Positions 4,049-37,827 of a DNA stretch of 64,000 bases are shown here, one piece after another. The first letter of the stretch is position 1; every line of letters starts with the position of its first letter. The position numbers were made by a program, and so were the translations under genes. A model generated the notes under the pieces. That model searched no databases. It was given only the letters and a program-made list of their open reading frames with translations, and had not been told where the DNA came from. Source of the DNA: an uncultured Planctomycetia bacterium (lineage in GTDB: Bacteria > Omnitrophota > Gorgyraeia > 2-02-FULL-51-18 > JAGOUK01); contig CAYSFB010000007.1 in NCBI GenBank assembly GCA_964430735.1, positions 62,179 through 126,178 of the forward strand, in the 5' to 3' direction.

Positions 4049-5725
4049 ATGGCACGTATGACTGGCGCCCAGGCAATGGTTGAATCCTTGCTGCGTGAGG
4101 GCGTGGACGTCGTATTCGGTTTGCCGGGCGGCGCCTGTCTTCCGTTTTTCGACAAGCTGTATGATGCGAAGCTCAAGATGGTGCTGGTCCGCCACGAACA
4201 GGGCGCCGTGCACATGGCCGAAGGGTATGCGCGTTCGACCGGCAAGGTCGGCGTCGCGATCGCGACCTCCGGCCCCGGCGCGACCAATTGCGTGACCGGC
4301 ATCGCCGACGCGTACATGGACTCGATCCCGCTGGTGGTCATCACCGGACAGGTGAAGAGCTTCATGATCGGCAACGACGCGTTCCAGGAAGCCGATACGA
4401 CCGGCATCACGCGCCCCATCACGAAGCACAATTACCTGGTCAAGGACCCTCAGCATATTCCGCGGATCGTCAAAGAGGCGTTTTACCTGGCCCGCACCGG
4501 ACGTCCCGGCCCCGTGCTGATCGACTTTCCGGTCGACATCTCGCTGGCCGAGATGGACTTCTACTGGCCCGAAGCCGTCAATCTGCGCAGCTACAACCCG
4601 GTCGTGAAGGGAAGCTTGAGCCAGATCCAGAAGGCCGCCAAGATGATCTCGCATTCCAAGAAGCCGGTGCTGTACACCGGCGGCGGCGTCATCATCGCCC
4701 GCGCGGCGAAGGAAGTGAAGCAGCTGGCCGAGAAACTCCAGGCCCCCGTGACGAACACGCTCATGGGACTGGGCGGCATGGACGCGTCGAGCCCCTTGTT
4801 CATCGACATGCTGGGCATGCACGGCGCGGTGTACGCCAACCGCGCGGTGGACGAGTGCGACCTGCTGATCTCGATCGGCGCGCGCTTCGACGACCGCGTG
4901 ACCGGCAACCTCGAGAAATTCTCTCCGCATTCCAAGAAGATCCACATCGACATCGATCCGGGCTCGATCTCCAAGAGCATTCCGGTCGACATCCCGATCG
5001 TCGGCGACGTGAAGGAAGTGCTGCACGAGCTCCTGAAGCTCGTCGGTCCGCTCGACACCAAGGAATGGCTCGCGCAGATCGCCGCGTGGAAGAAGGAAAG
5101 TCCGTTCCGCTACAAGGACGACGGCCTTTCGATCAAGCCCCAGTACGTCATTCAGCAGATCTGGGAAGCCACCAAGGGCAACGCGCTCATCACGACAGAC
5201 GTCGGACAGCATCAGATGTGGGCTGCACAGTACTACCGGTTCAACGAGCCGAACGCGATGATGACCTCCGGCGGTCTGGGCACGATGGGTTATGGATTCC
5301 CGGCGGCGATCGGCGCCCAGATGGGCCGTCCCGACAAGGAAGTCTGGTGCATCTCGGGCGACGGCTCGATCCAGATGAACATCCAGGAATACACGACGGC
5401 CGTCATTCACAAGTTGCCGGTCAAGGTCGCGATCCTGAACAACGGCTTTTACGGCATGGTGCGGCAGTGGCAGCACTTTTTCTACAAGGACCGCTTCTCG
5501 AGCTCGACGATGGACTGCAACCCGGACTTCGTGAAGTTGTCCGAGGCGTACGGCGGCGTCGGTATCCGGGTCACGCGCAAGGAAGACGTGATTCCGGCGA
5601 TCCAGAAGGCGCGTTCGATCAACGATCGTCCGGTGTTCCTCGACTTCGTCTGCCCCAAGGACGAAAACGTGATGCCGATGATCCCCTCAGGAGGGTCCAT
5701 GGAACAGATCATGGACATGGCATAA
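4049..5725 (+). CDS. ilvB: acetolactate synthase large (catalytic) subunit
   Basis: 558 aa with ThDP-enzyme motifs (GLPGGACLPFFD, GPGATN, GDGS.QMN.QE) along its whole length. Confidence 0.95.
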   Translation: MARMTGAQAMVESLLREGVDVVFGLPGGACLPFFDKLYDAKLKMVLVRHEQGAVHMAEGYARSTGKVGVAIATSGPGATNCVTGIADAYMDSIPLVVITGQVKSFMIGNDAFQEADTTGITRPITKHNYLVKDPQHIPRIVKEAFYLARTGRPGPVLIDFPVDISLAEMDFYWPEAVNLRSYNPVVKGSLSQIQKAAKMISHSKKPVLYTGGGVIIARAAKEVKQLAEKLQAPVTNTLMGLGGMDASSPLFIDMLGMHGAVYANRAVDECDLLISIGARFDDRVTGNLEKFSPHSKKIHIDIDPGSISKSIPVDIPIVGDVKEVLHELLKLVGPLDTKEWLAQIAAWKKESPFRYKDDGLSIKPQYVIQQIWEATKGNALITTDVGQHQMWAAQYYRFNEPNAMMTSGGLGTMGYGFPAAIGAQMGRPDKEVWCISGDGSIQMNIQEYTTAVIHKLPVKVAILNNGFYGMVRQWQHFFYKDRFSSSTMDCNPDFVKLSEAYGGVGIRVTRKEDVIPAIQKARSINDRPVFLDFVCPKDENVMPMIPSGGSMEQIMDMA

Positions 5726-8993: not shown

Positions 8994-9875
8994 ATGGCGA
9001 CCGAACCGGCTCAGGCAGCCATCGACGGCAAGACCGCGATTTATGGCGTGATCGGCGACCCGATCAAGCACACGCTGTCGCCGGCGCTTCACAACGCGGT
9101 GTTTGCTCACCGCGGCGTGAACGCCGTGTACGTGCCGTTCCACGTCTCGCCGGACAACCTGTTCGGGGCCATCGACGGTTTTCGTTCGCTCGGGATCAAG
9201 GGCCTGAACGTCACGCTGCCGCATAAAGAGCAGGTGATGCATTACATCGATTCGACGCCGAACCTCGTCGACCGCGCGATCGGGGCAGTGAACACGCTGG
9301 TGCTCGCCGAAGGGCGCACGCTGGGATTCAACACCGACGGTGTGGGATTTTTGAGCGACATCAAGGACCAGTTCGGGCTTGAGCTCGAGGGGCGTTCGGC
9401 GCTCGTGATCGGGGCGGGCGGGTCGGCCCGGGCAGTGGTTTTTTCGCTGCTCGAAGCAGGAGTGCAGCCGCTTTACATCTTCAACCGGACGCCGGACCGC
9501 GCGCGGGGCTTGAGGGAATACGCTTTTCAATATTTTCCGGACCGCGACATCGAAGCCGTGGACGCCATCGACGACCTGCCGTCCAAGCTCGACCTCGCCG
9601 TCAACTGCACGTCGTGCGGCATGGGGGAGCAGGACCCGTTCCCGATCGATCCGGACGTGCTGGCGAAGACCGAGCGGGTTTATGATCTGATCTACGCGCC
9701 GGAAGAGACCAAGCTCCTCCAGGAAGCGCGCCGCCGCAAGATCCCGTGTTCGAACGGCATCGGCATGCTCATCCACCAGGCCTGCGTCGCGCACCGCCTG
9801 TGGTTCCCGGAAGCCGACCGCAAAGAACTTTATACCGTCATGCGGCAGGCCTACGAAGTATGGCGCCGGCGCTAG
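8994..9875 (+). CDS. aroE: shikimate dehydrogenase
   Basis: 293 aa with the motifs GDPIKHTLSP..NVTLPHK..NTDG.G..GAGGSARA. Confidence 0.85.
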   Translation: MATEPAQAAIDGKTAIYGVIGDPIKHTLSPALHNAVFAHRGVNAVYVPFHVSPDNLFGAIDGFRSLGIKGLNVTLPHKEQVMHYIDSTPNLVDRAIGAVNTLVLAEGRTLGFNTDGVGFLSDIKDQFGLELEGRSALVIGAGGSARAVVFSLLEAGVQPLYIFNRTPDRARGLREYAFQYFPDRDIEAVDAIDDLPSKLDLAVNCTSCGMGEQDPFPIDPDVLAKTERVYDLIYAPEETKLLQEARRRKIPCSNGIGMLIHQACVAHRLWFPEADRKELYTVMRQAYEVWRRR

Positions 9876-10648
9876 CGCTGCTGTTCGGGCTGCTCGTCGG
9901 GAGTTTTTTAAACGTCTGCATCTGGCGCATGCCGCGCTCGCAATCGATCGCCTGGCCCGGTTCCCACTGTCCTTCCTGTTCCAAACCCATCCGCTGGCAC
10001 GACAACATTCCCGTCCTCGCCTGGTGCTGGCTGCGCGGCAAATGCCGGTTTTGCCCCTCCCGGATTCCCGTCCGTTATCCGATCGTGGAGCTCCTCGGCG
10101 GCCTGGCCGGGTTCGCGGCGTTCTCGCACTGGTCCGGGGCGTACGCGGTTGCCGCGGCCGTGATCTTCTGGGCGCTTATCGTCGTCATCTGGATCGACTG
10201 GGAGCATCAGATCATCCCGGACGAGATCAGTGTGGGCGGCATCGTGCTGGGACTCGCTTTTTCGTTCTTTTTTCCGGTGTGGGTGTCCGGTTCCGAGGGG
10301 GTCGCCGGCTGGCGGTCGCTCCTGTGGTCCGCGGCCGGCCTTTTGACGGGCGGGGGCATTCTGTACCTCATGGCGGTGGTCGGCGAAAAAGTATTCAAAA
10401 AAGAAGCGATGGGCGGGGGAGACGTCAAACTCCTCGCGGCGATCGGAGCCTTCTTCGGATGGAAGGGCGCCCTGTTTGCCCTCTTCGCCGGTTCCGTCGC
10501 CGGCTCATTTGCCGGCCTGGCCGTCAAATACACGCTCAAAAAAGAAGCCATTCCGTTCGGTCCGTATCTGGCGCTCGGCACCGTGCTCCATATGTTCTGG
10601 GGCGAGGCCATTCTGTCCTGGTACGTGACCCGCATGCTACAATACTAG
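9860..10648 (+). CDS. pilD: type IV prepilin leader peptidase (A24 family)
   Basis: The product has the N-terminal tetra-Cys motif CPSC...CRFC, multiple TM segments and a GGGDVKLLAAIGAFFGW active-site region. It starts inside the aroE 3' end, overlapping by 16 nt. Confidence 0.85.
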   Translation: MAPALALLFGLLVGSFLNVCIWRMPRSQSIAWPGSHCPSCSKPIRWHDNIPVLAWCWLRGKCRFCPSRIPVRYPIVELLGGLAGFAAFSHWSGAYAVAAAVIFWALIVVIWIDWEHQIIPDEISVGGIVLGLAFSFFFPVWVSGSEGVAGWRSLLWSAAGLLTGGGILYLMAVVGEKVFKKEAMGGGDVKLLAAIGAFFGWKGALFALFAGSVAGSFAGLAVKYTLKKEAIPFGPYLALGTVLHMFWGEAILSWYVTRMLQY

Positions 10649-10690
10649 GCGAATTTTGAAAAAATCTCCGCTTTGCCTGTAGGAGCCCCT

Positions 10691-11821
10691 ATGCTGCGTT
10701 ATTCCACGTCCGGTGAATCTCACGGAATCTGCCTCATCGCCGTCCTCGAAGGAATGGTTGCCGGTCTCAAGCTGGACCCGGCCGCGATCGATCACGAGCT
10801 GTGGCGCCGCCAGCAGGGCTACGGCCGCGGCGGACGAATGCTCATCGAGACCGACCGCGCCGAGCTCCTGACCGGCATCCGCCAAAACGAGACCATCGGC
10901 GGCCCCATCGCGATGCGGATGGAGAACAAGGACTTCAAGATCAATGTCCTGCCCGCCGTCCAGCGTCCGCGGCCGGGCCATGCCGACCTCATCGGCGCCA
11001 TGAAGTACAACCGCCGCGACGTGCGCGACATCCTCGAGCGCGCCAGCGCCCGCGAAACGACCGCCCGCGTCGCCGTCGGCGCCGTGTGCCGCCAATTCCT
11101 CGCCCAGTTCGGCGTCAAGATCACCAGCCACGTCACCGACATCGGCAGCGTCAAAGTCGAGAACCCTTCTTCTTATTCGTTCGACCAGATCGCCGACATC
11201 GCCGAAAAAAGCCCCGTCCGCTGCGTCGAGCCCCAGACGGGCGAGCGCATGATGCGCAAGATCGACGAGATCAAGGCCGCCAAGGACACCGTCGGCGGCG
11301 TCTTCGAGATCCGCGTGAAGGGCGTTCCGCCCGGCCTCGGCTCGTTCACGACGTCCCCGGACCGCCTCGACGCGCGTCTGGCGTTCGCGATGATGTCGAT
11401 CCAGGCGGTGAAGGGCGTGGAGTTCGGCCTCGGGTTCGGCGTGGCGCATACGCCCGGCTCCTCGGCGCACGACGAGATTTTTTACGACGCGAAGACCAAG
11501 AAGTTCTTCCGCAAGACCAACCGCGCCGGCGGACTCGAAGGCAGCATGTCGACGGGCGAGGAGCTGGTGATCCGCGCGGCGGCCAAGCCGTACGCGACGT
11601 TGATGAAGCCGCTCGCGTCGACCAACATCGCGACCAAGGCCGCCGAAGTGGGGACGATCGAGCGGTCGGACGTGACGGCTGTTCCGGCCTGCGGCGTCGT
11701 CGGCGAGTCGATGGCGGCGTTTGAGCTCGCCAAGGTATTTTTGGAAAAGTTCGGCGGCGACAGTCTCTCGGAGACCCGGCGGAATTATGATGGGTATCTG
11801 AAACAAGTGGAGGATTTTTAA
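10691..11821 (+). CDS. aroC: chorismate synthase
   Basis: MLRYSTSGESHG sits at the N-terminus and a GGAG RBS lies 8 nt upstream. The ORF-track start at 10673 is the less likely start. Confidence 0.9.
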   Translation: MLRYSTSGESHGICLIAVLEGMVAGLKLDPAAIDHELWRRQQGYGRGGRMLIETDRAELLTGIRQNETIGGPIAMRMENKDFKINVLPAVQRPRPGHADLIGAMKYNRRDVRDILERASARETTARVAVGAVCRQFLAQFGVKITSHVTDIGSVKVENPSSYSFDQIADIAEKSPVRCVEPQTGERMMRKIDEIKAAKDTVGGVFEIRVKGVPPGLGSFTTSPDRLDARLAFAMMSIQAVKGVEFGLGFGVAHTPGSSAHDEIFYDAKTKKFFRKTNRAGGLEGSMSTGEELVIRAAAKPYATLMKPLASTNIATKAAEVGTIERSDVTAVPACGVVGESMAAFELAKVFLEKFGGDSLSETRRNYDGYLKQVEDF

Positions 11822-23028: not shown

Positions 23029-24162
23029 ATGAAAATCCTGATCCTCGCCAATCACGCCCGACGCGGCGGGATCACGTCGTACGTTTCTGTTTTGGCCCGT
23101 GAACTCGTGCGGCGCGGCCACCGGGTCCTGGTCGTGACCGGCGGCGGCGAAACGGCGCCGCAGTTCGAGGCGGTCGGCGCCGAGCACCGCACCCTTTTTC
23201 TTGATACGAGCTCCGAGCTCAATCCGCGCTTGTGGGGATCCGCTGCCGCTTTGCGCGGGTGGATCGACCGGGAGGGGTGGCAGATCGTTCACGCGCAAAC
23301 CCGGGTCGCCCAGACGGTCGCGGCGATCGCGCTGCGCGGACGGGACGTTCCGCGCGTCACGACCTGTCACGGATTTTTTAAAACCCGCTTTTTCAGAAAA
23401 CTGCTGCCGCTTTGGGGGGATCGTGTGATCGCGATCAGCCGGGCGGTCGAAAAGCACCTGCTGCGCGATTGGGCGCTGGCCCCGAAGCGTACGGCGTATG
23501 TTCCGCACGGTGTCGAACGGTTGTATGCCGACGAGGAGCTTTTGCGGCTGCGGGAGGAAGCCCGCCGCGAACTCAATATTTTTTCCGGTTCCGTCCTCGC
23601 CGGGGCGCTGGGCCGCCTTTCGCCGGTCAAGGGGTATCACGTACTGATTGAAGCGATGGCGCTTTTGAAGGACGTGCCGGTGGAACTGGTGCTGGTCGGC
23701 GACGGACCTGAAGCCCCGCGGCTCGACGAGTCCATCCGCGCGCTGGGCGTCGCGGCGCGCGTCCGGCGGATTCCGGCGATCGCGAATCACCATGCTATAC
23801 TGCATGCGTTCGACATTTTCTGCGCTCCGTCGCTCCAGGAAGGTTTGGGATTGGCGGCGATGGATGCCATGGCGCGGGGTACGTGCGTCATCGCTTCGAA
23901 TGTCGGCGGTTTGCCGGACCTCATCCGCGACGGTGAAACCGGGCGCCTCGTGCCCGCTGGCGACGCGGCGGCGCTGGCCGCGGCGATTCGCGGGCTGGCA
24001 TCCGACGCTGCCGCGCGGACGCGGCTGGGAAGCGCCGGCCGGCGCTTTGTCGAACGGGAATTCACCCTGAACCGGATGATCGAGGGGACTGAGCGCGTTT
24101 ACGCGGAGCTGCTGAGCGCCGCCGAAGTCCCCACCTCTCACAAGGATGCGCATGGCGTTTAA
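23029..24162 (+). CDS. GT4-family glycosyltransferase
   Basis: It starts MKILILANHARRGGITSYV.. and its C-terminal half has the EGLGLAAMDAMARG (E-x7-E) motif. Confidence 0.8.
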   Translation: MKILILANHARRGGITSYVSVLARELVRRGHRVLVVTGGGETAPQFEAVGAEHRTLFLDTSSELNPRLWGSAAALRGWIDREGWQIVHAQTRVAQTVAAIALRGRDVPRVTTCHGFFKTRFFRKLLPLWGDRVIAISRAVEKHLLRDWALAPKRTAYVPHGVERLYADEELLRLREEARRELNIFSGSVLAGALGRLSPVKGYHVLIEAMALLKDVPVELVLVGDGPEAPRLDESIRALGVAARVRRIPAIANHHAILHAFDIFCAPSLQEGLGLAAMDAMARGTCVIASNVGGLPDLIRDGETGRLVPAGDAAALAAAIRGLASDAAARTRLGSAGRRFVEREFTLNRMIEGTERVYAELLSAAEVPTSHKDAHGV

Positions 24163-29394: not shown

Positions 29395-30129
29395 ATGCAA
29401 ACCATCGGCGTCATTCCCGCACGGCTCGGATCCACGCGATTGGCCCGCAAGGTCCTGATGGACCTCGGCGGGAAGCCCGTGATTCAGCACGTGTACGAGC
29501 GCACCCGCAAGGCGCGCCTCCTCGATGACGTGATCGTGGCCTGCGACGACGACGAGATCGTATCCGTGGTCCGCGGCTTCGGCGGCAAGGCCGTTCTCAC
29601 CTCCAAACACCACACGACCGGCACCGACCGCCTCGCCGAAGTCGTCAACGACCTCGACGTGCAGACGATCGTGAACATCCAGGGCGACGAGCCCTTCGTG
29701 AATCCGTTGACCATCGACGACCTCGTGGGCCTGATGCAGAAGGAAGCCGGCACGGTGATGGCCACCGTCGTCAAAAAGTCCACGAGCTTCGAGGACTTCA
29801 AGAAGCCCGACGTCGTCAAGGCCGTCCTGGACGACGAAGGCCACGTGCTTTATTTTTCTCGGATGCCGATCCCGACTTTTTTGAAGGAAGGGGAATCGTT
29901 CTACAAGCACATCGGCCTGTACGCCTTCACCAAGGAATTTTTGTTCACGTTTAAAAAAATGCCCCCCTCCTTCCTGGAGCGGCACGAACGCCTCGAGCAG
30001 CTGCGCGCGCTGGAAAACGGCTACCGCATTCGGGCGATCGAAACCAAATTCGAAACCATCGGCATCGACACTCCTGAAGATCTGGAGCGGGCCCGCGCCG
30101 TTCTGGCCAGCCAGGAAGCCGCCGGTTAA
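29395..30129 (+). CDS. kdsB: 3-deoxy-manno-octulosonate cytidylyltransferase (CMP-Kdo synthetase)
   Basis: It carries the IPARLGSTRLARKVL motif and is 244 aa. Confidence 0.9.
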   Translation: MQTIGVIPARLGSTRLARKVLMDLGGKPVIQHVYERTRKARLLDDVIVACDDDEIVSVVRGFGGKAVLTSKHHTTGTDRLAEVVNDLDVQTIVNIQGDEPFVNPLTIDDLVGLMQKEAGTVMATVVKKSTSFEDFKKPDVVKAVLDDEGHVLYFSRMPIPTFLKEGESFYKHIGLYAFTKEFLFTFKKMPPSFLERHERLEQLRALENGYRIRAIETKFETIGIDTPEDLERARAVLASQEAAG

Positions 30130-30147: not shown

Positions 30148-31788
30148 ATGAGTCCAGAAAAATCCACCCCCAAATATTTGTTTGTCACCGGCGGCGTCGT
30201 TTCCAGTCTCGGCAAGGGAGTTGCGTCCGCGTCGCTCGGCAAGCTGCTCGAAGCCCGCGGACTCAAGGTGACGATCATCAAGTGCGACCCTTATCTCAAC
30301 GTCGACCCGGGCACGATGAACCCCTACCAGCACGGAGAAGTCTACGTCACGCAGGACGGAGCGGAAACGGATCTCGACCTCGGACATTACGAGCGTTTCC
30401 TGTCCGGGCCGATCACCAGCGCGAACAACATCACGGCCGGCAAGGTGTACCACTCGGTGATTCAGAAAGAGCGCCGCGGCGAATACCTCGGCGCGACCGT
30501 TCAGGTCATCCCGCACGTGACCGATGAAATCAAGGGTTTCCTCCGACGCATCGCGGAAACGAACAAGGGGCTCGACGTCGTCATCTGTGAGATCGGCGGA
30601 ACCGTCGGAGACATCGAATCGCTCCCGTTCCTGGAAGCGATCCGCCAGTTCCGCCAGGAGATCGGCCGCGAAAACGCCATCGACATCCACCTCACGCTGA
30701 TTCCGTACATCCGCACAGCGGACGAGCTCAAGACCAAGCCCACCCAGCATTCCGTCGGCAAAATGCGCGAGATCGGCATCCAGCCCGACATCCTGCTGTG
30801 CCGCACCGAACAACCGTTGCCGCTGGAGCTGCGCAAAAAAATCTCTCTCTTTTGCAACGTGCCGACCGAACAGGTGATCCCGATCCCCGACGTGGACGAC
30901 ATCTACAAGGTTCCTCTGGTGCTCGAGAGCGAGGGGCTGGACCGCATCGTTGCTCGTCTGGTCGGCCTCAAATGTTCCGACGGGGATCTGACCGAATGGA
31001 AGACCCGCGTCGTCGCCAAGGTCGAGCGTCCGCTGCACCGCATTCAGATTGCGGTGGTCGGCAAGTACACGGAACTGCAGGACGCTTACAAATCGATTTA
31101 TGAGGCGCTCAAGCACGGCGGCATCGCCAACGACACGGCCATCGATATCAAGAAGATCGATTCAGGAACGCTGCAGGATTGCAATCCGCATGAGCTGCTT
31201 CGCGATATGGACGGCATCCTGATCCCGGGAGGGTTCGGCGACCGCGGTTTGGAGGGCAAGTTCAAAGCCGCGCAATACGCGCGCGAGAACAAGGTCCCTT
31301 ATTTCGGTATCTGCCTGGGGATGCAGTGCGCGGTGATTGAATTCGCCCGCAATGCCTGCAACATGGCCGGCGCGAATACGGCGGAAACGAATCCCAAGGC
31401 TGCGTTTCCGGTCATCCATATGATGGAGGACCAAAAGACGGTGACTGACAAGGGCGGCACGATGCGCCTCGGCTCCTACCCCTGCAAGGTGAAGTCGGGT
31501 TCGCTCGCGCACAAGGCGTATCACAAGGACCAGGTTCAGGAGCGTCACCGTCACCGCTACGAATTCAACAACAAGTACAAGGTCAAGATGGAGCAGCAGG
31601 GCATGGTCATCAGCGGCGTGAGCCCCAACGGCCGTCTCGTCGAGATTATCGAACTGGAGGCGTCGCTCCACCCCTGGTTTGTCGGTTGCCAGTTCCATCC
31701 GGAATTTCAGTCCAAGCCGGACCGGCCGCACCCGCTGTTCCGCGACTTCGTCAAGGCCGCGCTCAAGAAGCGGAGCAAGGTCAAATGA
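30148..31788 (+). CDS. pyrG: CTP synthase
   Basis: 546 aa with the [10 protein letters not shown] motif and a C-terminal GATase domain (GICLGMQ). Confidence 0.95.
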
Positions 31789-32684
31789 CCCGCGCCGCCG
31801 CTGCCAAGAAGCCGGCTTCGTCCGCCGGTCCGGCCAAGGCCGAGCCGGTGCGCCTGGGCAAGCTCCGCATCGGTCCCGGCTGCCCGCTCACGATCATCGC
31901 CGGCCCCTGTGTGATCGAGTCCGAAGCGTCCGCGCTCCGCCACGCGAAACATCTGAAAAAACTCGCCGACAAGCTGGGCGTCCAATTCGTCTACAAGTCC
32001 AGCTATGACAAAGCCAACCGCACGTCCGCTTCCGCCTTTCGCGGATCGGGCATGGAGTCGGGCCTGGAGATCCTGGCCCGCGTGAAGCGCGAACTCGGCG
32101 TTCCGGTCACAAGCGATGTTCATTCGCCGCAGGAGGCCGAAGCCGCCGCCGGCGTCGTGGACATCCTGCAGATCCCGGCATTTTTGTGCCGCCAGACGGA
32201 CCTTCTGATCGCTGCCGGCCGCACCGGCAACGTGGTCAATATCAAAAAGGGGCAGTTCATGGCCCCCGAAGACATGCGTTACGCGGTGGAAAAAGTCCGC
32301 TCCACCGGCAACCGCCGTATTTTTCTCACCGAACGGGGGACTTCGTTCGGCTACCGGACGCTCGTGAACGACTTCCGCGCGATCCCGATCATGCGCGACC
32401 TCGGCGTGCCCGTCATTTTCGACGCGACCCATTCGGTCCAGCGGCCCGGAGGCCTGGGTCACGCGACCGGGGGAGACCGGCACTTCGCTCCGATGCTGGC
32501 ATGCGCGGCGACCGTCGCGGGCGCGGACGGAATTTTTATGGAAGTACACGAAGATCCGGACAACGCCCTTTCGGACGGTCCCAATTCGCTGCCGCTCGAG
32601 TGGCTGCCGGAACTGTGGAAAAAGCTTCAGATGCTCAGCGGAGTTTCCTGCCGTGTCGATCGCGACCGCGCAAGCCGTTCTTAA
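31785..32684 (+). CDS. kdsA: 2-dehydro-3-deoxyphosphooctonate aldolase (Kdo-8-P synthase)
   Basis: The ATG overlaps the pyrG TGA as ATGA. The DAHP/KDO8P synthase motifs are GPCVIES and KSSYDKANR. Confidence 0.9.
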
Positions 32685-33618
32685 GCACGAAGCCGAGTCC
32701 ATCCTCCGGATGGCCAAACGGCTCGACGCCGGCTTTGACCGTGCGGTCAAGCTGATCTATTCGTCCAAATATCCCGTCATCCTTGTCGGCATGGGCAAGC
32801 CCGGCTTCATCGCCGAAAAAATCTCCGCAAGTTTCGCCTCCACCGGCACTCCGTCGTTCACCCTTCATCCGGCCGACGCGCTGCACGGCGATATCGGACG
32901 CGTGCCGGCCGGTGCGGTGCTCATCCTGCTGTCGAACAGCGGCGAAACGGAAGAGCTGGTCCGCCTGGTGCCGTTGCTCAAGGCCGTCCACGCCAAGTTG
33001 ATCGTGATGACCGGCAACCTCAAGTCCTCGATGGCGCGTTCCGCCGACATCCTCCTCGACACGTCGGTCGTTTCGGAGGCGGAGCCGCTCAACCTCGCTC
33101 CGACCGCGTCCACGACCTGCATGCTCGCGATGGGCGATGCGCTCGCGATGGCGCTGGTCAAAAAGCGCCGTTTCAAGGAAAAAGACTTTGCGCTGCTGCA
33201 TCCGGGCGGCATGCTCGGCAAGCGCATGCGGCTGCGCGTCCGCGACGTGATGCGTTCGGGCGAGCGGAACCCCCGGGTGCGGCCCTCCATGGCGATCCGG
33301 GACGTGCTGCTCGAGATCACGACGGCCCGCGCCGGCAGCGCCACGATCGTGGATGCCAAGGGCAAATGCCTCGGGATCTTCACCGACGGTGACCTGCGCC
33401 GCCACTTCAAGGAATTGACCGCCCATCCGGATTCTCCCGTTTCCAAATACATGACCGCCAACCCCGTCACGATCAAGGAAGACCTGCTCGCGGTCCAGGC
33501 GCTCGAGCTCCTTCGCCGCCGCGCGATTGACGAACTGCCGGTTACGGACAAAGCCGGCCGTGTCCGCGGGCTCCTCGACGTGCAAGACCTGCTGGCACAA
33601 GGATTCATCACCTCATGA
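32653..33618 (+). CDS. kdsD: arabinose-5-phosphate isomerase (SIS + tandem CBS)
   Basis: It has a SIS domain ([25 protein letters not shown]) and two CBS domains. Its 5' end overlaps the kdsA 3' end by about 32 nt. Confidence 0.85.
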
Positions 33619-34145
33619 CAGACCTTCAGCTGGACGAACGCTTGAAGCGCATCAAGCTCGTCGCTACCGACCTCGACGGCGTGCTCACCAACGGAATCAT
33701 CTACTACGGCGATCACGGCGACGAGATCAAGGGCTTTCACATCCAGGACGGCCAGGGAATCGTGCTCGCGCAGCGGGCGAAGATCCGCACGGTGATCATC
33801 ACGGGCCGCAAGAGCAAGGTCAACGAGCGCCGCGCGCGCGACCTTCGGGTCGACCGCCTGATCCAGGACTGCCACGAAAAGGGCCGCGCCTTCGAAAAAG
33901 CCGTCGAGAAATACCGTCTCAAGCCGGAAGAAGCGGCCTATATCGGCGATGACCTGCTGGATTTGCCGCCGATGCGCAAGGCGGGATTGGCGGTCGCGGT
34001 CCGGAACGCCGTCGCCGAGGTCAAGTCCGCGGCCCATTACGTCACCGAACGTTCCGGCGGAGACGGCGCGGTCCGCGAAGTGATCGACATGATCCTGAAG
34101 TCGCAGGGGCTCTGGAGTTCCGTTACGGCCAAGGTCGGATCCTAA
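33615..34145 (+). CDS. kdsC: 3-deoxy-D-manno-octulosonate 8-phosphate phosphatase
   Basis: It has the HAD motif VATDLDGVLTNG and is 176 aa. Confidence 0.85.
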   Translation: MTDLQLDERLKRIKLVATDLDGVLTNGIIYYGDHGDEIKGFHIQDGQGIVLAQRAKIRTVIITGRKSKVNERRARDLRVDRLIQDCHEKGRAFEKAVEKYRLKPEEAAYIGDDLLDLPPMRKAGLAVAVRNAVAEVKSAAHYVTERSGGDGAVREVIDMILKSQGLWSSVTAKVGS

Positions 34146-34913
34146 GTGAAAAAATTTGTGGTCTGGGCCCTGCTCGCGTCAGCGGCAGCGGGCGTCTGGT
34201 GGATGATGAGCGTCCACCGTCCGGCGCGACCGGCTGTTTACGCGGAAGCGGACGGTGATCCCAAAGGCCAGGTGATCGAGCACTTCGAGCTCGAGGGTTT
34301 TGATGACGAGGGAAACGCCTCGTGGCGGCTGGTGGGGGATTCGGCGGTGGTGTCCAGCGCCACCGACGTCTTCATTGAGAAGGACGTCGTTTTGACGATG
34401 CTCGGCGGCGCGATCATCCGCTCCGACAAGGTGTTCTGGCAGAATTCAAAGACCCGTTTTGTCACGAGCCAGCCGGTCAAGGTGCTGCACCGCAATATCG
34501 AGGTCGAGGGCCGCGGCGCGATCGGCAAATTGAACCAGAAGAGCATCCAGATCAATCAGGATATCCGGATGCGGATCGAGCCCGACGGGACGCTCGTGAC
34601 CTGCCGGGGGCCGATGCGGATTTTACAGGGCGAAAGCCGCGTGACGCTGTATCATGACGTCACGATCCGGGACACCCGCGGGAATCTTGTCGCCGACCGG
34701 ATGGACGCGTTCTTCGATCCGGATACGAAAAAAATCGTGATGATCACCGCTTCCGGCAATGTCCGGATCACGCGCGGAGAAGACATCAGCGTCGCCGACA
34801 AGGCCATCTACGACACGCGCACCGGCTCCATCCGATTGGAAGGCATGCCCGAGATCAGCATCCGCGACACCAACGGCCTGGAACCGGGCAAATTACCGCT
34901 GAGGACTTCATGA
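34146..34913 (+). CDS. lptC: LptC-like membrane-anchored LPS transport protein with an extended LptA/OstA-N-like periplasmic beta-jellyroll (255 aa)
   Basis: It begins with a GTG start and has an N-terminal TM ([21 protein letters not shown]). The C-terminal part has the LptA-like pattern ..[19 protein letters not shown]... Its position between kdsC and lptB fits the call. Confidence 0.6.
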
Positions 34914-35632
34914 GCCTGCTGGACGTTCAGTTCGTCAAAAAGAAATACGGGGAGCGCGAAGTCGTCCGCGGCGTCAACATCACCGTGAACCGCGGCGAAA
35001 TCGTAGGCCTTCTCGGTCCCAACGGCGCCGGCAAAACCACCACGTTCTACATGACCGTCGGCCTTGTCCCGGCCGACTCCGGCCGCATCCTCTTTAACGA
35101 CCGCGACGTCACCAAGATGCCGATGTACAAACGCGCCCGCTACGGCATGGGCTACCTGTCGCAGGAACCCTCGATTTTCCGCAATCTGACCGTCGCTGAG
35201 AACATCCTCGCCATCCTGGAAGCGTTGCGCATCCCGTACCGGGAGCGCAAACGCCGGCTCGAAGAGCTGCTCCATGAGCTGCGCATCGAAAAGCTCCGCA
35301 ATTCCAAAGCCGTCACCCTTTCGGGCGGGGAGCGCCGGCGCCTGGAAATCACGCGCGCGCTGGTGGCCCATCCGATGTGCATCCTGCTCGACGAGCCGTT
35401 TTCGGGGATCGACCCGATCGCCGTATCCGAGTGCCAGGAGCTCATCAAGGACCTGAAGCGTCGGGGGATCGGCATCCTGCTCACCGACCACAATGTCCGC
35501 GAAACCCTCTCGATCACCGACCGCGCCTACATCATGGCCGAAGGCCGTATTCTGGTCTCCGGCACCAAGGACCAGCTCCTCTCCTCCGAAGAAGCCCGCA
35601 AGCTTTACCTCGGCGAAAAATTCTCCATGTAG
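34910..35632 (+). CDS. lptB: LPS export ABC transporter ATP-binding protein
   Basis: It has the Walker A motif GPNGAGKTT, the signature [10 protein letters not shown] and a Walker B motif ILLDEPF. Confidence 0.9.
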
Positions 35633-35680
35633 TTCCCGGATCGCCGCTATTGATTCCGCGGGCCATTTGTGTGACCATAA

Positions 35681-35694
35681 TGTAAGCGCTTACA
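35681..35694 (+). promoter_or_regulatory. LacI/CcpA-family operator: the perfect palindrome TGTAAGCGCTTACA
   Basis: This 14-bp perfect palindrome is identical to the optimal LacI/cre-type consensus. It sits between candidate -10 boxes (CATAAT at 35676, TATAAT at 35697) about 25 nt upstream of the secreted-protein gene. Confidence 0.65.
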
Positions 35695-35696
35695 TC

Positions 35697-35702
35697 TATA
35701 AT
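35697..35702 (+). promoter_or_regulatory. -10 element TATAAT immediately downstream of the LacI-type operator
   Basis: TATAAT lies 17 nt upstream of the ATG at 35720, and a GGAGG RBS follows. Confidence 0.45.
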
Positions 35703-35719
35703 CCAAAATCGGAGGTGTC

Positions 35720-36331
35720 ATGAATAAAGTAGTCACCGCATTCGCGGCCGCGCTCTTGTCGACGGTCGAACCCGTGATGGCGGCCAGCGCCTCTCAGACA
35801 GTGAACATTTCCATGAGCGTGGATCAGGTGCTGGATCTTGGTGTGGCGGTCCACCGTCTGGATTCCAACGGCATTCCGACCGGGGCAAATCTCGGGCCCG
35901 TGATGCCGTTCGGCCAGTTGACGCGGGACGTGACATACAAGGTCATGCGCGCTTCCCAGAGTTTTATGGTCTATCTGGACGCCAATTCTTCCGGCAGGCC
36001 ATATCTGGTTAAGGCGACCATGCCTCCGCTTTCAAACGGAGCGGTGACCTTGCCGCCGGCCATGGTGGCTACCGTAATCGCCGCCAGTTCGGCCGCGGAT
36101 TACGACATCCCGGGCGATGCCTTTGCCGGAAACGGACAGAATGCGATCATGGACAATCAGACGATTTACACATCCAATGCATCCGGTACTGCGGCCGCCA
36201 TCCAGGTGGTGTACGGGGTTAGCGGCGGTCAGGCGGTGGGCTCGCCGTTTTCCGGCTGGATGCCGATCCCGGTGTCGCAGGCGTCAGGCAACTACACGTC
36301 CAGCGTCACCTATACGATCGCTCTCAGTTGA
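35720..36331 (+). CDS. secreted beta-rich hypothetical protein (203 aa), possibly SCPU/Csu-pilin-like
   Basis: It has a signal peptide (MNKVVTAFAAALLSTVEPVMA). It is Ser/Thr/Gly-rich. Its C-terminal GNYTSSVTYTIAL resembles the G-x-Y-x-D-T-V-T-V terminal strand of spore-coat-protein-U/Csu subunits. Confidence 0.5.
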   Translation: MNKVVTAFAAALLSTVEPVMAASASQTVNISMSVDQVLDLGVAVHRLDSNGIPTGANLGPVMPFGQLTRDVTYKVMRASQSFMVYLDANSSGRPYLVKATMPPLSNGAVTLPPAMVATVIAASSAADYDIPGDAFAGNGQNAIMDNQTIYTSNASGTAAAIQVVYGVSGGQAVGSPFSGWMPIPVSQASGNYTSSVTYTIALS

Positions 36332-36356
36332 CACCGGGGCAGCGTATAATCAGAGA

Positions 36357-37379
36357 ATGACCGCGCAGCGCAAGCCCACCATATACGACCTGGCTAAGAA
36401 GGCCGGTGTTTCCATTGCGACGATTTCGCGCGCGACCAATCCCAGGCTGCGCGGCAAGCTGGCGCCTGCGACCCTGAGCCGGATTGACCGGTTGATCGAA
36501 CGGCAGGGTTACAGTCCGTCGCTTGCCGCCAGCCGCCTTGCCGGAAAGTCCTTCAGGACCATCGGTTTTTTGCTCCCGCATTTGCAGGGCATCTTTCAGA
36601 ACGATTACTACAACAATATCCAGGCGGGGATATCGGACCGCGTGTTGCAATCGGATCACCAATTCAAACTGGTGCTCCTGAGGCCCTCACAAAGAAAATT
36701 CTGGGACCGCTATGATTTTAAAGCCGCCGAAGACATCGATGCGCTGCTGATCACTCATTGGCCGAATTTTTTCTCGAACAAAAAGGTCCTGGAGCGTTTA
36801 GGGCTGCCTTGTGTCGTGGTGAATGACCCTGAAGAGCAGGTCAACGCGGCGTTCGTCACGGGCGACAGCGCGGCCGGCGGGAGACGGGTCGCCGAATACC
36901 TGCTCTCGAAGGGGCATCGCAGTTTTTTGCTGATGGAAGGTCCGTCCTGGTCGACTGACAGCCGTGCACGTTTGCAGGGTTTTCAAGCGGCCTGTCTTGC
37001 GCACAAGAGCATCCGCATTCAGCGCTTGCGCGGGGACTTTTTGGGCGAAAAAGCCGAACATCTGATGGAGGCCTTCCTGTTGTCCAAAAAAACCTGCGAT
37101 GCAGTCTTTTGCTTCAATGATCACATGGCCCTCGGCGTCCTGAGGGCCATGAAACGACTCGGCGTCCGCTGCCCCAAGGACATCGCGGTTGCGGGCTATG
37201 ACGATGACCGGGTGGCGGGAACTTCCGAGGTTCCGCTGACCACGGTGCGGGTGCCGGTCTATCAGATGGTCAAGGATGCCACCTCCCGTCTTATCCGCTG
37301 TTTGGACGGCGACCGCAAGGCGCTGGATGAAAAAATCGCTTTTTACCCCGTCGATCTGATCAAAAGAGAATCCGCCTGA
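36357..37379 (+). CDS. LacI-family transcriptional regulator
   Basis: It has an N-terminal HTH (TIYDLAKKAGVSIATISRATN) and a periplasmic-binding-protein-like sugar-binding core, and is 340 aa. Confidence 0.85.
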   Translation: MTAQRKPTIYDLAKKAGVSIATISRATNPRLRGKLAPATLSRIDRLIERQGYSPSLAASRLAGKSFRTIGFLLPHLQGIFQNDYYNNIQAGISDRVLQSDHQFKLVLLRPSQRKFWDRYDFKAAEDIDALLITHWPNFFSNKKVLERLGLPCVVVNDPEEQVNAAFVTGDSAAGGRRVAEYLLSKGHRSFLLMEGPSWSTDSRARLQGFQAACLAHKSIRIQRLRGDFLGEKAEHLMEAFLLSKKTCDAVFCFNDHMALGVLRAMKRLGVRCPKDIAVAGYDDDRVAGTSEVPLTTVRVPVYQMVKDATSRLIRCLDGDRKALDEKIAFYPVDLIKRESA

Positions 37380-37488
37380 CCGCATCTCCGATAAGCGGAT
37401 AACCCGGATTTGGCCGTGTTGGCCGGGTCCGGGAGTTGTGATATCATATGCAGCTCTTGAACGCTCCCAATTGAGACAAGGAGTCCCT

Positions 37489-37827
37489 ATGCAAATCGAT
37501 ATCAGCAGCCGTCATAAATTCAAGGTTACGGACATGCTGCGCGAGTACGTCGAAGAGAAGATGCCCAAGCTTGAGCGCTTTTCCCTCAAAGTCGAGTCGG
37601 CCCACGTCGTTTTTGAACAGGAAAAAGTGAACGCGACCTGCGAAATCGTCCTCCTGGGCAAAGGCATGCGCCTGACCGCCTGCGAGACGACGACCGCGAT
37701 GCAGGCGTCCTTTGACGCCGCGCTGGGCAACCTCATGCACCAGCTTGAGCGTCACCATGACAGAATCAAGAACCACCGCCACGAAAAAATCAGAGTCGAA
37801 AGTCGGATTGATGAAGACGAATCTTAA
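37489..37827 (+). CDS. hpf: ribosome hibernation promoting factor (short HPF/RaiA)
   Basis: An AAGGAG RBS precedes it. The motif MQIDISSRHKFKVTDMLREYVEEK is present and the product is 112 aa. Confidence 0.8.
   Translation: MQIDISSRHKFKVTDMLREYVEEKMPKLERFSLKVESAHVVFEQEKVNATCEIVLLGKGMRLTACETTTAMQASFDAALGNLMHQLERHHDRIKNHRHEKIRVESRIDEDES

Follow-up and report, generated by a model that had tools for sequence, protein, structure and literature searches.

Why does a gene pair encoding a predicted secreted protein and a LacI-family regulator sit in the lipopolysaccharide (LPS) transport locus of an Omnitrophota bacterium, directly between lptB and hpf? Members of this phylum are uncultured and mostly ultra-small, and host-dependent or predatory lifestyles have been inferred for them. 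The locus lies in a stretch of 64,000 nucleotides (64 kb, hereafter the window; contig CAYSFB010000007.1, positions 62,179 to 126,178), in which lptB is followed by a palindrome, an open reading frame (ORF) of 203 amino acids (aa) whose product we call X, a LacI-family gene (lacI) and hpf. This order, first described in a sequence-only reading of the window, is confirmed by the ORF listing and by profile matches, and X has the signal-peptide-like N-terminus and the C-terminus given for it, as well as a GGAGG ribosome-binding site (Table 1). Our analysis points to X as an extra subunit of a surface fibre, repressed by the adjacent LacI through the palindrome in its promoter, a combined model to which we assign a probability of roughly 0.55.

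The earlier statement that X has no confident family assignment holds for named families, as there is no Pfam or NCBIfam match at E ≤ 1, but X is one of a family with about 82 representative clusters. A word-indexed search of 5.8 billion proteins returned X itself and one relative at 60% identity (P0002), and an exhaustive phmmer search of 1.84 billion cluster representatives returned 82 at E ≤ 1e-3, of which 24 reach E ≤ 1e-10; with few exceptions they are 190-230 aa long. The alignment on which the conserved motifs and the AlphaFold2 model are based (A1, 40 sequences) has a conserved signal peptide ending in AxA, a V-x-V-x-A-x-V consensus of alternating hydrophobic residues at X residues 27-34, the motifs ANTSGRPY, LP.A, Y.S...G and Y.I, and a C-terminal DQ..G.Y...VT[FY]T strand. 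X has all of the family residues that are invariant or nearly so, and therefore looks functional. The mature protein contains 13% Ala, 12% Ser, 10% Val, 9% Gly and 7% Thr, with neither Cys nor Glu, which corrects its description as Ser/Thr/Gly-rich. One giant protein (P0039, 1587 aa) matches residues 26-66 of X, in its N-terminal part, in ten separate stretches; the X-type domain, or its first strands, is also repeated in tandem in long proteins.

The AlphaFold2 model of X (predicted local distance difference test, pLDDT, 89.7; predicted template modelling score 0.79) is an all-beta sandwich from residue 39 onwards, with residues 22-38 outside the sandwich and a pLDDT of 61 for residues 21-30. 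Given the family consensus and their position outside the modelled sandwich, residues 27-34 are a candidate donor strand. Weak fold matches of the model include Gram-positive pilins, the class-5 pilins CS17, CS1 and CfaB, the FimH-pilin, FimA, FimG, PapA, PapH and PapK, as well as CanX (5.7) and TLP-2 (7.0), and the top three Foldseek matches are the donor-strand fibre proteins AbpA, TasA and CanX (E 1.5e-2 to 3.2e-2, template modelling (TM) score ~0.3). We read this as the predicted fold of a surface-fibre-type beta-sandwich, and no more. A PDB sequence-profile search with the X family was empty (best E 0.46, to viral VP9). The proposed membership of X in the SCPU/Csu family is not borne out, since neither X nor its 39 relatives match PF05229 at E ≤ 1; DUF4402 is matched weakly by 4 of the 40 family members (best E 0.094). 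The broader suggestion that X is pilin- or adhesin-like gains support from the fold match and, more strongly, from homologues that adjoin a protein with a PapD-type chaperone fold.

For several X homologues the contigs are too short for the gene context to be visible; elsewhere the homologues lie in a recurring cluster. On the 23-kb contig that carries P0002 (L001), the order is a PilZ-domain protein of 651 aa, proteins of 988 and 460 aa, X paralogues of 201, 199 and 200 aa, a 265-aa protein, a 935-aa protein, a 286-aa coiled-coil protein, a distant X paralogue of 171 aa on the opposite strand, a 1112-aa protein and gltX. The 265-aa protein and its counterparts are chaperone-like. With a hidden Markov model (HMM) built from the X family, single-domain genes, between one and four per locus, were detected directly 5' of the chaperone-like gene in five loci (L001, L092, L096, L097 and L091), together with three X-like domains in the preceding protein of 460-500 aa and a divergent copy of ~170 aa nearby. 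The conserved core, which is minimal in L096, consists of the three-domain X-like protein, the X-like subunit or subunits, the PapD-fold protein and a protein of 934-972 aa.

The chaperone-like protein is 265-291 aa long across the clusters (265 aa in L001; 268 aa in L092, at 10001-10807), and the 265-aa version has 75 relatives at 38-87% identity, those with a name being only hypothetical proteins of Candidatus Omnitrophica. Its model (pLDDT 92.8) has the two-domain PapD/FimC/CsuC chaperone fold, with the best fold matches to CfaA (12.7), EcpB (12.3), FimC (12.3), CupB2 (11.7) and YadV (11.6), followed by CsuC (11.2), PapD (10.8) and FaeE (10.0); a predicted two-domain PapD-fold protein is thus encoded alongside the subunits, as in chaperone-usher systems. 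The match of this protein to WxLIP_PGBD (PF06030), at 24.4 bits, falls short of the cut-off of 27.3. The ~935-aa protein (L092 10924-13728) combines a faint N-terminal T2SS-T3SS_pil_N match with a beta-rich middle and C-terminal SdrD_B/CarboxypepD_reg immunoglobulin-like (Ig-like) repeats, and by analogy of gene order it may play the role of an usher. The only pilin-named sequence match anywhere in the analysis is to CPR_Pam_pilin_C (NF058581), with E 2.6e-4 and 21.1 bits (cut-off 55) for the 461-aa protein of L092; two of 40 X relatives match it (best E 0.07) and X itself does not. At the level of predicted folds and gene order the cluster would work like a chaperone-usher system, but X and the cluster fail every sequence-family test (Fimbrial, SCPU, PapD, Usher, TasA, WxL and Pam). 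We consider it likely that X is a fibre subunit of such a chaperone-assisted system.

The clusters are flanked by a PilZ-domain protein of ~650 aa, of the type that acts as a cyclic di-GMP (c-di-GMP) receptor (L092 440-2389, L001 1506-3461, L097 1166-3313), and by a protein of ~1110 aa resembling GH149 beta-1,3-glucan phosphorylases (L092 15283-18618, L001 16402-19740). The GH149 match of the 1111-aa protein (E 4.5e-32) lies below the cut-off, and L097 has a GH116 enzyme. These flanking genes suggest a link of the fibre to c-di-GMP signalling and glucan metabolism. A further protein of ~860-990 aa, encoded 5' of the subunit genes (L092 2433-5288, L001 3522-6488, L097 3310-5880) and not part of the minimal L096 cluster, has no family match; its N-terminal region is of low complexity and rich in Ala, Pro and Ser, and it ends in ...FRVSLDGEF. 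A C-terminal Phe is typical of outer-membrane beta-barrels.

The full cluster represented by L092 comes from the Logan assemblies of SRR14271373 and SRR14271372, and the same runs yield contigs of the window (L006 and L008). Its chaperone-like protein, P0095, is on a 293-kb NCBI contig. Taken half by half, the window has tetranucleotide correlations of 0.975 and 0.969 with L092, as compared with 0.984 between the halves, and the ranges of GC content at third codon positions (GC3) of L092 and the window overlap. X is 57% identical to the product of the subunit gene directly 5' of the chaperone-like gene in L092 (9236-9835) and, as noted above, 60% identical to P0002, whereas these two orthologues share 69% identity. 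This makes X a diverged, additional copy of the same type of subunit.

The palindrome upstream of X has the form of a LacI-family operator. Its core, TGTAAGCGCTTACA, occurs as a single exact copy in the window and, together with the flanking A and T, forms a palindrome that is perfect over 16 bp, ATGTAAGCGCTTACAT; the perfect 14-bp palindrome reported earlier is therefore exact and unique in the window as described, but longer than was stated. It lies 25-40 nucleotides (nt) 5' of the X start codon (centred at 32 nt), recurs unchanged in three other assemblies of this locus and is the sole exact match to the LacI-type pattern TGNAANCGNTTNCA within the 64 kb. In a survey of LacI-family regulons, 1173 of 1303 binding motifs were even palindromes with a central CG, and 72% of the regulators were autoregulated (PMC4052901). 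As judged against that survey, the window palindrome is even, has a central CG, lies in the usual position range and adjoins an intact LacI gene, in agreement with the operator form attributed to it by the sequence-only reading. Perfect 14-bp palindromes number 13 in the window (5.7 ± 2.5 in shuffles); the other 12 of the 13 are all GC-rich, and the operator candidate alone is AT-armed. Among the GC-rich ones are GTCGCGATCGCGAC at 4253 and GCGCCGGCCGGCGC at 24032. A second operator that would permit looping was not found in the window at three or fewer mismatches, except for a site in a coding region (19223) at chance level. An RNA hairpin or terminator role for the palindrome was rejected, as the spacer folds worse than its shuffles (z = +1.6) and has no T-tract. 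Collectively, these features make it quite probable that the adjacent LacI acts through the palindrome.

In L092, a near-palindrome (TTTAAGCGGTTAAA, 9190-9203) lies 33-46 nt 5' of the closest paralogue of X and aligns with the window operator. We do not claim it as a LacI site: it has three mismatches, does not have TG/CA at its ends and is no better than expected by chance (33 of 100 shuffles). It follows directly on a terminator hairpin in L092 and is also found in L001, ~40 nt upstream of position 10001.

A promoter for X is plausible, and the terminator scan found no terminator-like site in either the lptB-X or the X-lacI interval. Downstream of lacI, a 63-nt stretch containing a hairpin folds at -30.5 kcal/mol (z = -3.5; none of 200 shuffles equals it); the hairpin has no T-tract and was hence not called by the terminator scan, but it likely marks the end of the X-lacI transcript. 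The simplest transcription unit therefore consists of the operator and promoter, X, lacI and the hairpin. Rfam gave no matches in the X-lacI module or in the lptB-hpf spacer of L009.

The regulator itself is unremarkable. It matches the Pfam LacI helix-turn-helix domain at residues 8-55 (PF00356, 33.4 bits, cut-off 27) and, in its effector domain, Peripla_BP_3 (E 5.9e-31) and Peripla_BP_1 (E 3.1e-16), and its hinge sequence is YSPSLAASRL. Full-length matches to the RbsR, PurR and CcpA models are all below cut-off, with 168 bits against 382 for the RbsR equivalog and all equivalog models far under theirs. It shares with autoregulated repressors of the RbsR, PurR and CcpA type the HTH_LacI domain and the periplasmic-binding-protein-like effector domain, an even, central-CG operator matching TGNAANCGNTTNCA, and a regulator gene that adjoins its target and is probably co-transcribed with it; the difference is that the sole target in sight here is a pilin-like structural gene, with no transporter or catabolic enzyme. 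The regulator is thus an ordinary LacI-family member apart from its unusual target. The description of the module as sugar-regulated had been assumed from the family name, and there is no sugar gene in the module. The main fibre clusters adjoin the glycan-related genes mentioned above (GH149-like, and GH116 in L097) as well as the PilZ-domain protein, and from these neighbours a carbohydrate cue for LacI is plausible. There is no Shine-Dalgarno sequence before the lacI ATG (36357), and a leaderless lacI mRNA from the internal TATAAT is possible. A perfect TTGACA (36328-36333) contains the X stop codon, and the internal TATAAT is just 11 bp away, so that the two do not form a canonical pair.

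One genome per species was scanned with LptB, which places the window in Candidatus Omnitrophota, and the proteins of the window were searched against the recovered loci by tblastn. LptB is 96% identical in L009, 95% in L011 and 93% in L010, and 63-78% identical in further Omnitrophota metagenome-assembled genomes. In L009, L011, L012-L015 and L018 the order is lptB-hpf-tig-clpP with neither X nor LacI, and in many other Omnitrophota loci it is lptB-tig-clpP, with hpf not detected; in the window, too, hpf is followed by tig and clpP. L011 has ~55 bp between the lptB stop codon and the hpf promoter block, and no counterpart of the lptB-X spacer of the window. The block GTTGTGATATCATA...GCTCTTGAACG...CAATTGAGACAAGGAG is common to the window (37436-37488), L009 and L011, and the promoter scan places TTGGCC-17-TATCAT with an upstream TG at hpf (37419-37447). 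The direct lptB-hpf arrangement of the relatives and the conserved promoter block therefore identify 35633 to ~37435 as a derived insertion. By this comparison, X and lacI are a lineage-specific insertion of ~1.8 kb, as the sequence-only reading had suspected in calling the module inserted, and they displaced nothing. The GC3 values of X (0.73) and lacI (0.71) are below those of the flanking genes (0.78-0.84), and that of hpf is equally low (0.71). Direct or inverted repeats flanking the insert are limited to short matches at chance level, and there is no transposase, integrase or tRNA at its junctions. The lptB-hpf spacers of L009 (7141-7560; arms of about 24 and 21 bp) and L010 (3165-3330; arms of ~33 bp) carry near-perfect inverted repeats that resemble elements of the miniature inverted-repeat transposable element (MITE) or repetitive extragenic palindrome (REP) type. 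Because of these repeats, the site 3' of lptB seems to be an insertion hot spot in the genus.

In the model that we favour, the block of ~1.8 kb that was inserted between lptB and the hpf promoter is a small operon, made up of promoter and operator, X, lacI and a terminator-like hairpin. Without effector, a LacI dimer on the 16-bp palindrome, which abuts the -10 box, would block transcription of both X and lacI, and a small-molecule effector, probably a sugar or sugar derivative, would release it. X would then be exported by the Sec pathway as an Ig-like or jelly-roll subunit, be bound in trans by the chaperone-like protein that the main cluster encodes and also use the large (~935-aa) protein of that cluster in trans. 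By donor-strand complementation through its N-terminal V-x-I-x-M-x-V segment it may join or cap the surface fibre, and its incorporation would alter the composition of the fibre.

Several results weigh against this model. The window contains no other member of the X family or the chaperone family and no usher-like gene, so that X has to act in trans. The sister species L011 also shows tetranucleotide correlations of 0.96-0.97 with the window, so the compositional agreement of L092 and the window amounts to compatibility and not to proof of a single genome; that both belong to one genome is compatible with the shared samples and the composition, the two lines of evidence that bear on it. The components of the cluster have no match among the Pfam Fimbrial, SCPU, PapD and Usher models, and the ~935-aa protein has no similarity to ushers (PF00577) in Pfam, NCBIfam or PDB sequences. 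The palindrome had been described as embedded in a promoter, and while a perfect TATAAT follows it, the consensus promoter scan finds no canonical -35/-10 pair for X. LacI adjoins X-family genes in no other locus examined, and a metagenome scan with LacI returned relatives at 24-28% identity only; the lack of close relatives means that there is no comparative support for the link between X and LacI.

It may be asked whether X is part of a fibre at all. A LacI-repressed beta-sandwich that stands alone, unpolymerised and independent of a chaperone, such as a glycan binder, a monomeric adhesin or a periplasmic binder, is unlikely given that X is 57-60% identical to subunits encoded directly 5' of the chaperone-like gene, that it keeps the alternating-hydrophobic N-terminal segment and all conserved family residues, and that the full cluster is present in the same samples. 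Alternatively, X could be a self-assembling subunit of the TasA/AbpA/CanX type that needs neither chaperone nor usher, the PapD-fold neighbour serving, for example, as an anchor like WxLIP. The best Foldseek matches of X are to these proteins, but with E ~1e-2, TM ~0.3 and no Pfam TasA or camelysin match; Omnitrophota are diderm, as the LPS genes next door indicate, and a fibre therefore has to be passed through an outer membrane, a task for which the co-conserved ~935-aa protein could serve; and the order of subunit, chaperone and large protein mirrors that of chaperone-usher operons. We regard self-assembly of this type as quite improbable. The regulatory half of our model can be doubted separately: the palindrome might not be the operator of the adjacent LacI, which would act elsewhere, with X expressed constitutively or by read-through from lptB. 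The absence of a called promoter 5' of X and of a terminator between lptB and X, the excess of perfect 14-bp palindromes in the window (13 against 5.7), the TATAAT of lacI 6 nt before its own ATG and the lack of linkage between LacI and X-family genes in other genomes examined would all fit this. Yet the palindrome is the only AT-armed one and the only exact match to the LacI consensus in 64 kb, it lies in an 87-bp spacer directly 5' of the gene that adjoins lacI, X and lacI arrived together as one insertion, and most LacI-family regulators (72%) control their own operon (PMC4052901), which renders a palindrome unconnected with LacI improbable.

The sequence-only reading had also implied that the module took the place of rpoN and ptsN at an ancestral position, thereby rewiring a sigma-54/LPS-transport locus. 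Neither gene is in the window, as that reading held: tblastn of the 64 kb with four RpoN queries, taken from loci with rpoN after lptB (L046, L069, L079 and L083; RpoN-box ARRTVAKYR), and one PtsN query gave a best E of 0.7. An rpoN gene directly after lptB, often followed by hpf, does occur in the loci fetched from other groups, namely Acidobacteriota (Pyrinomonadaceae), Nitrospirota, Fibrobacterota/Chitinispirillaceae, KSB1, Latescibacterota, Zixibacteria and Gemmatimonadales. Among ~30 Omnitrophota loci, however, none has rpoN within 8 kb of lptB, nor do the loci of Verrucomicrobiota, Kiritimatiellae and Chlamydiae, and the nearest relatives have lptB and hpf in direct succession, so that the arrangement without rpoN is older than the insertion. 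Compared with the lptB-rpoN-hpf-ptsN neighbourhood, lptB and hpf are in canonical order here, 3' of kdsD-kdsC-lptC, while neither rpoN nor ptsN is present here or in any of the Omnitrophota loci that were examined. To speak of the place where rpoN normally lies accordingly has no meaning in this phylum, and the proteobacterial order is not transferable to it. The absence of rpoN at lptB is ancestral for Omnitrophota and the module did not replace it; we give a replacement next to no credence.

The features of the locus are collected in Table 1. The 255-aa protein upstream of lptB matches LptC at residues 40-145 and, more weakly, LptA/LptD_N (OstA-like) at residues 163-238; lptA does not occur as a gene of its own between lptC and lptB, and this one-gene arrangement is also found in Omnitrophota relatives. 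The gap between X and lacI is 25 nt and the lacI-hpf spacer 109 bp. Further downstream, tig as called begins at 37811, so that its first 17 nt lie within hpf, which ends at 37827. L009 and L011 show the same hpf-tig overlap, a sign that hpf and trigger factor may be translationally coupled in the genus.

Table 1. Features of the lptB-hpf region and its upstream neighbours (window coordinates)
Feature	Position	Strand	Basis
kdsB	29395-30129		profile-library annotation
pyrG	30148-31788		
kdsA	31785-32684		
kdsD	32653-33618		
kdsC	33615-34145		
LptC/LptA-like protein, 255 aa	34146-34913		
lptB (LPS export ATPase), left anchor of insert	34910-35632	+	TIGR04406, E 1.5e-105, above cut-off
lptB-X spacer, 87 bp: left insert junction and X promoter region	35633-35719	+	
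Candidate LacI operator, perfect 16-bp palindrome ATGTAAGCGCTTACAT, central CG	35680-35695 (core 35681-35694)		
TATAAT, -10-like hexamer, 2 nt 3' of palindrome	35697-35702	+	read from sequence
GGAGG, ribosome-binding site of X, 4 nt before ATG	35711-35715	+	read from sequence
X, 203-aa predicted secreted beta-sandwich protein, pilin-like	35720-36331	+	
X signal peptide, residues 1-21, cleavage after V-M-A	35720-35782	+	by eye, AxA rule
TVNISMSV, X residues 27-34, candidate N-terminal donor strand	35798-35821	+	
TATAAT 6 nt before lacI start codon, possible internal promoter	36345-36350	+	read from sequence
LacI/GalR-family regulator, 340 aa, intact	36357-37379	+	Pfam and NCBIfam matches
Hairpin, 13-bp stem, 3' of lacI	37403-37433	+	
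hpf promoter and 5' leader block, conserved; right insert junction	37436-37488	+	
hpf (ribosome hibernation promoting factor), right anchor	37489-37827	+	PF02482, E 3.3e-18; TIGR00741, E 2e-18

With respect to known fibre systems, the cluster shares the predicted PapD fold and the gene order of chaperone-usher systems (Fim, Pap and Csu), but does not match the usher profile PF00577. Pam pili of candidate phyla radiation (CPR) bacteria consist of Ig-like pilins that undergo donor-strand exchange and are associated with putative chaperones of a chaperone-usher-like kind; their pilins, reported to be exclusive to CPR, have two domains and a mass of 39-55 kDa (bioRxiv 10.64898/2026.03.03.709456). 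X, in contrast, is a single-domain protein of ~19 kDa when mature, comes from a diderm phylum, and its family and cluster match the Pam model far under the cut-off. The TasA/AbpA/CanX superfamily consists of beta-sandwich or jelly-roll subunits with an N-terminal donor strand, which X with its predicted fold and candidate donor strand may resemble, and provides the top Foldseek matches, yet the scores are weak, there is no sequence-family match, and fibres of that superfamily assemble without a PapD-like chaperone. The WxL/WxLIP clusters of Firmicutes (PMC10599100) differ in that X has no match to the WxL domain and that the WxL system is monoderm and peptidoglycan-binding. A survey of the phylum Omnitrophota describes type IVa and Tad pili and giant adhesin-like ORFs only (PMC10066038), and our literature search found no paper linking chaperone-usher systems with Omnitrophota.

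We therefore put forward, as a tentative proposal that is possible rather than probable, that the X family, the PapD-fold protein, the three-domain protein and the ~935-aa protein form an undescribed donor-strand-exchange pilus that is widespread in Omnitrophota, with a LacI-switched, diverged subunit in the present lineage. If true, such a pilus would have no sequence similarity to Fim, Pap or Csu pili or to the Pam pili of CPR; it would add a third kind of surface fibre to Omnitrophota and, with the Pam pili as the first case, be a second one of chaperone-usher-like assembly beyond the classical families. The interest lies mainly in this undescribed fibre cluster, and that of the window module itself is moderate. 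The module is nonetheless a clean and datable two-gene insertion that couples a putative subunit to a predicted ligand-responsive repressor with a single obvious candidate operator, and hence a tractable entry point to the regulation and function of the fibre. If the model is correct, the LacI switch would let the cell adjust the composition of its fibre to a glycan cue that a host, prey or substrate presents.

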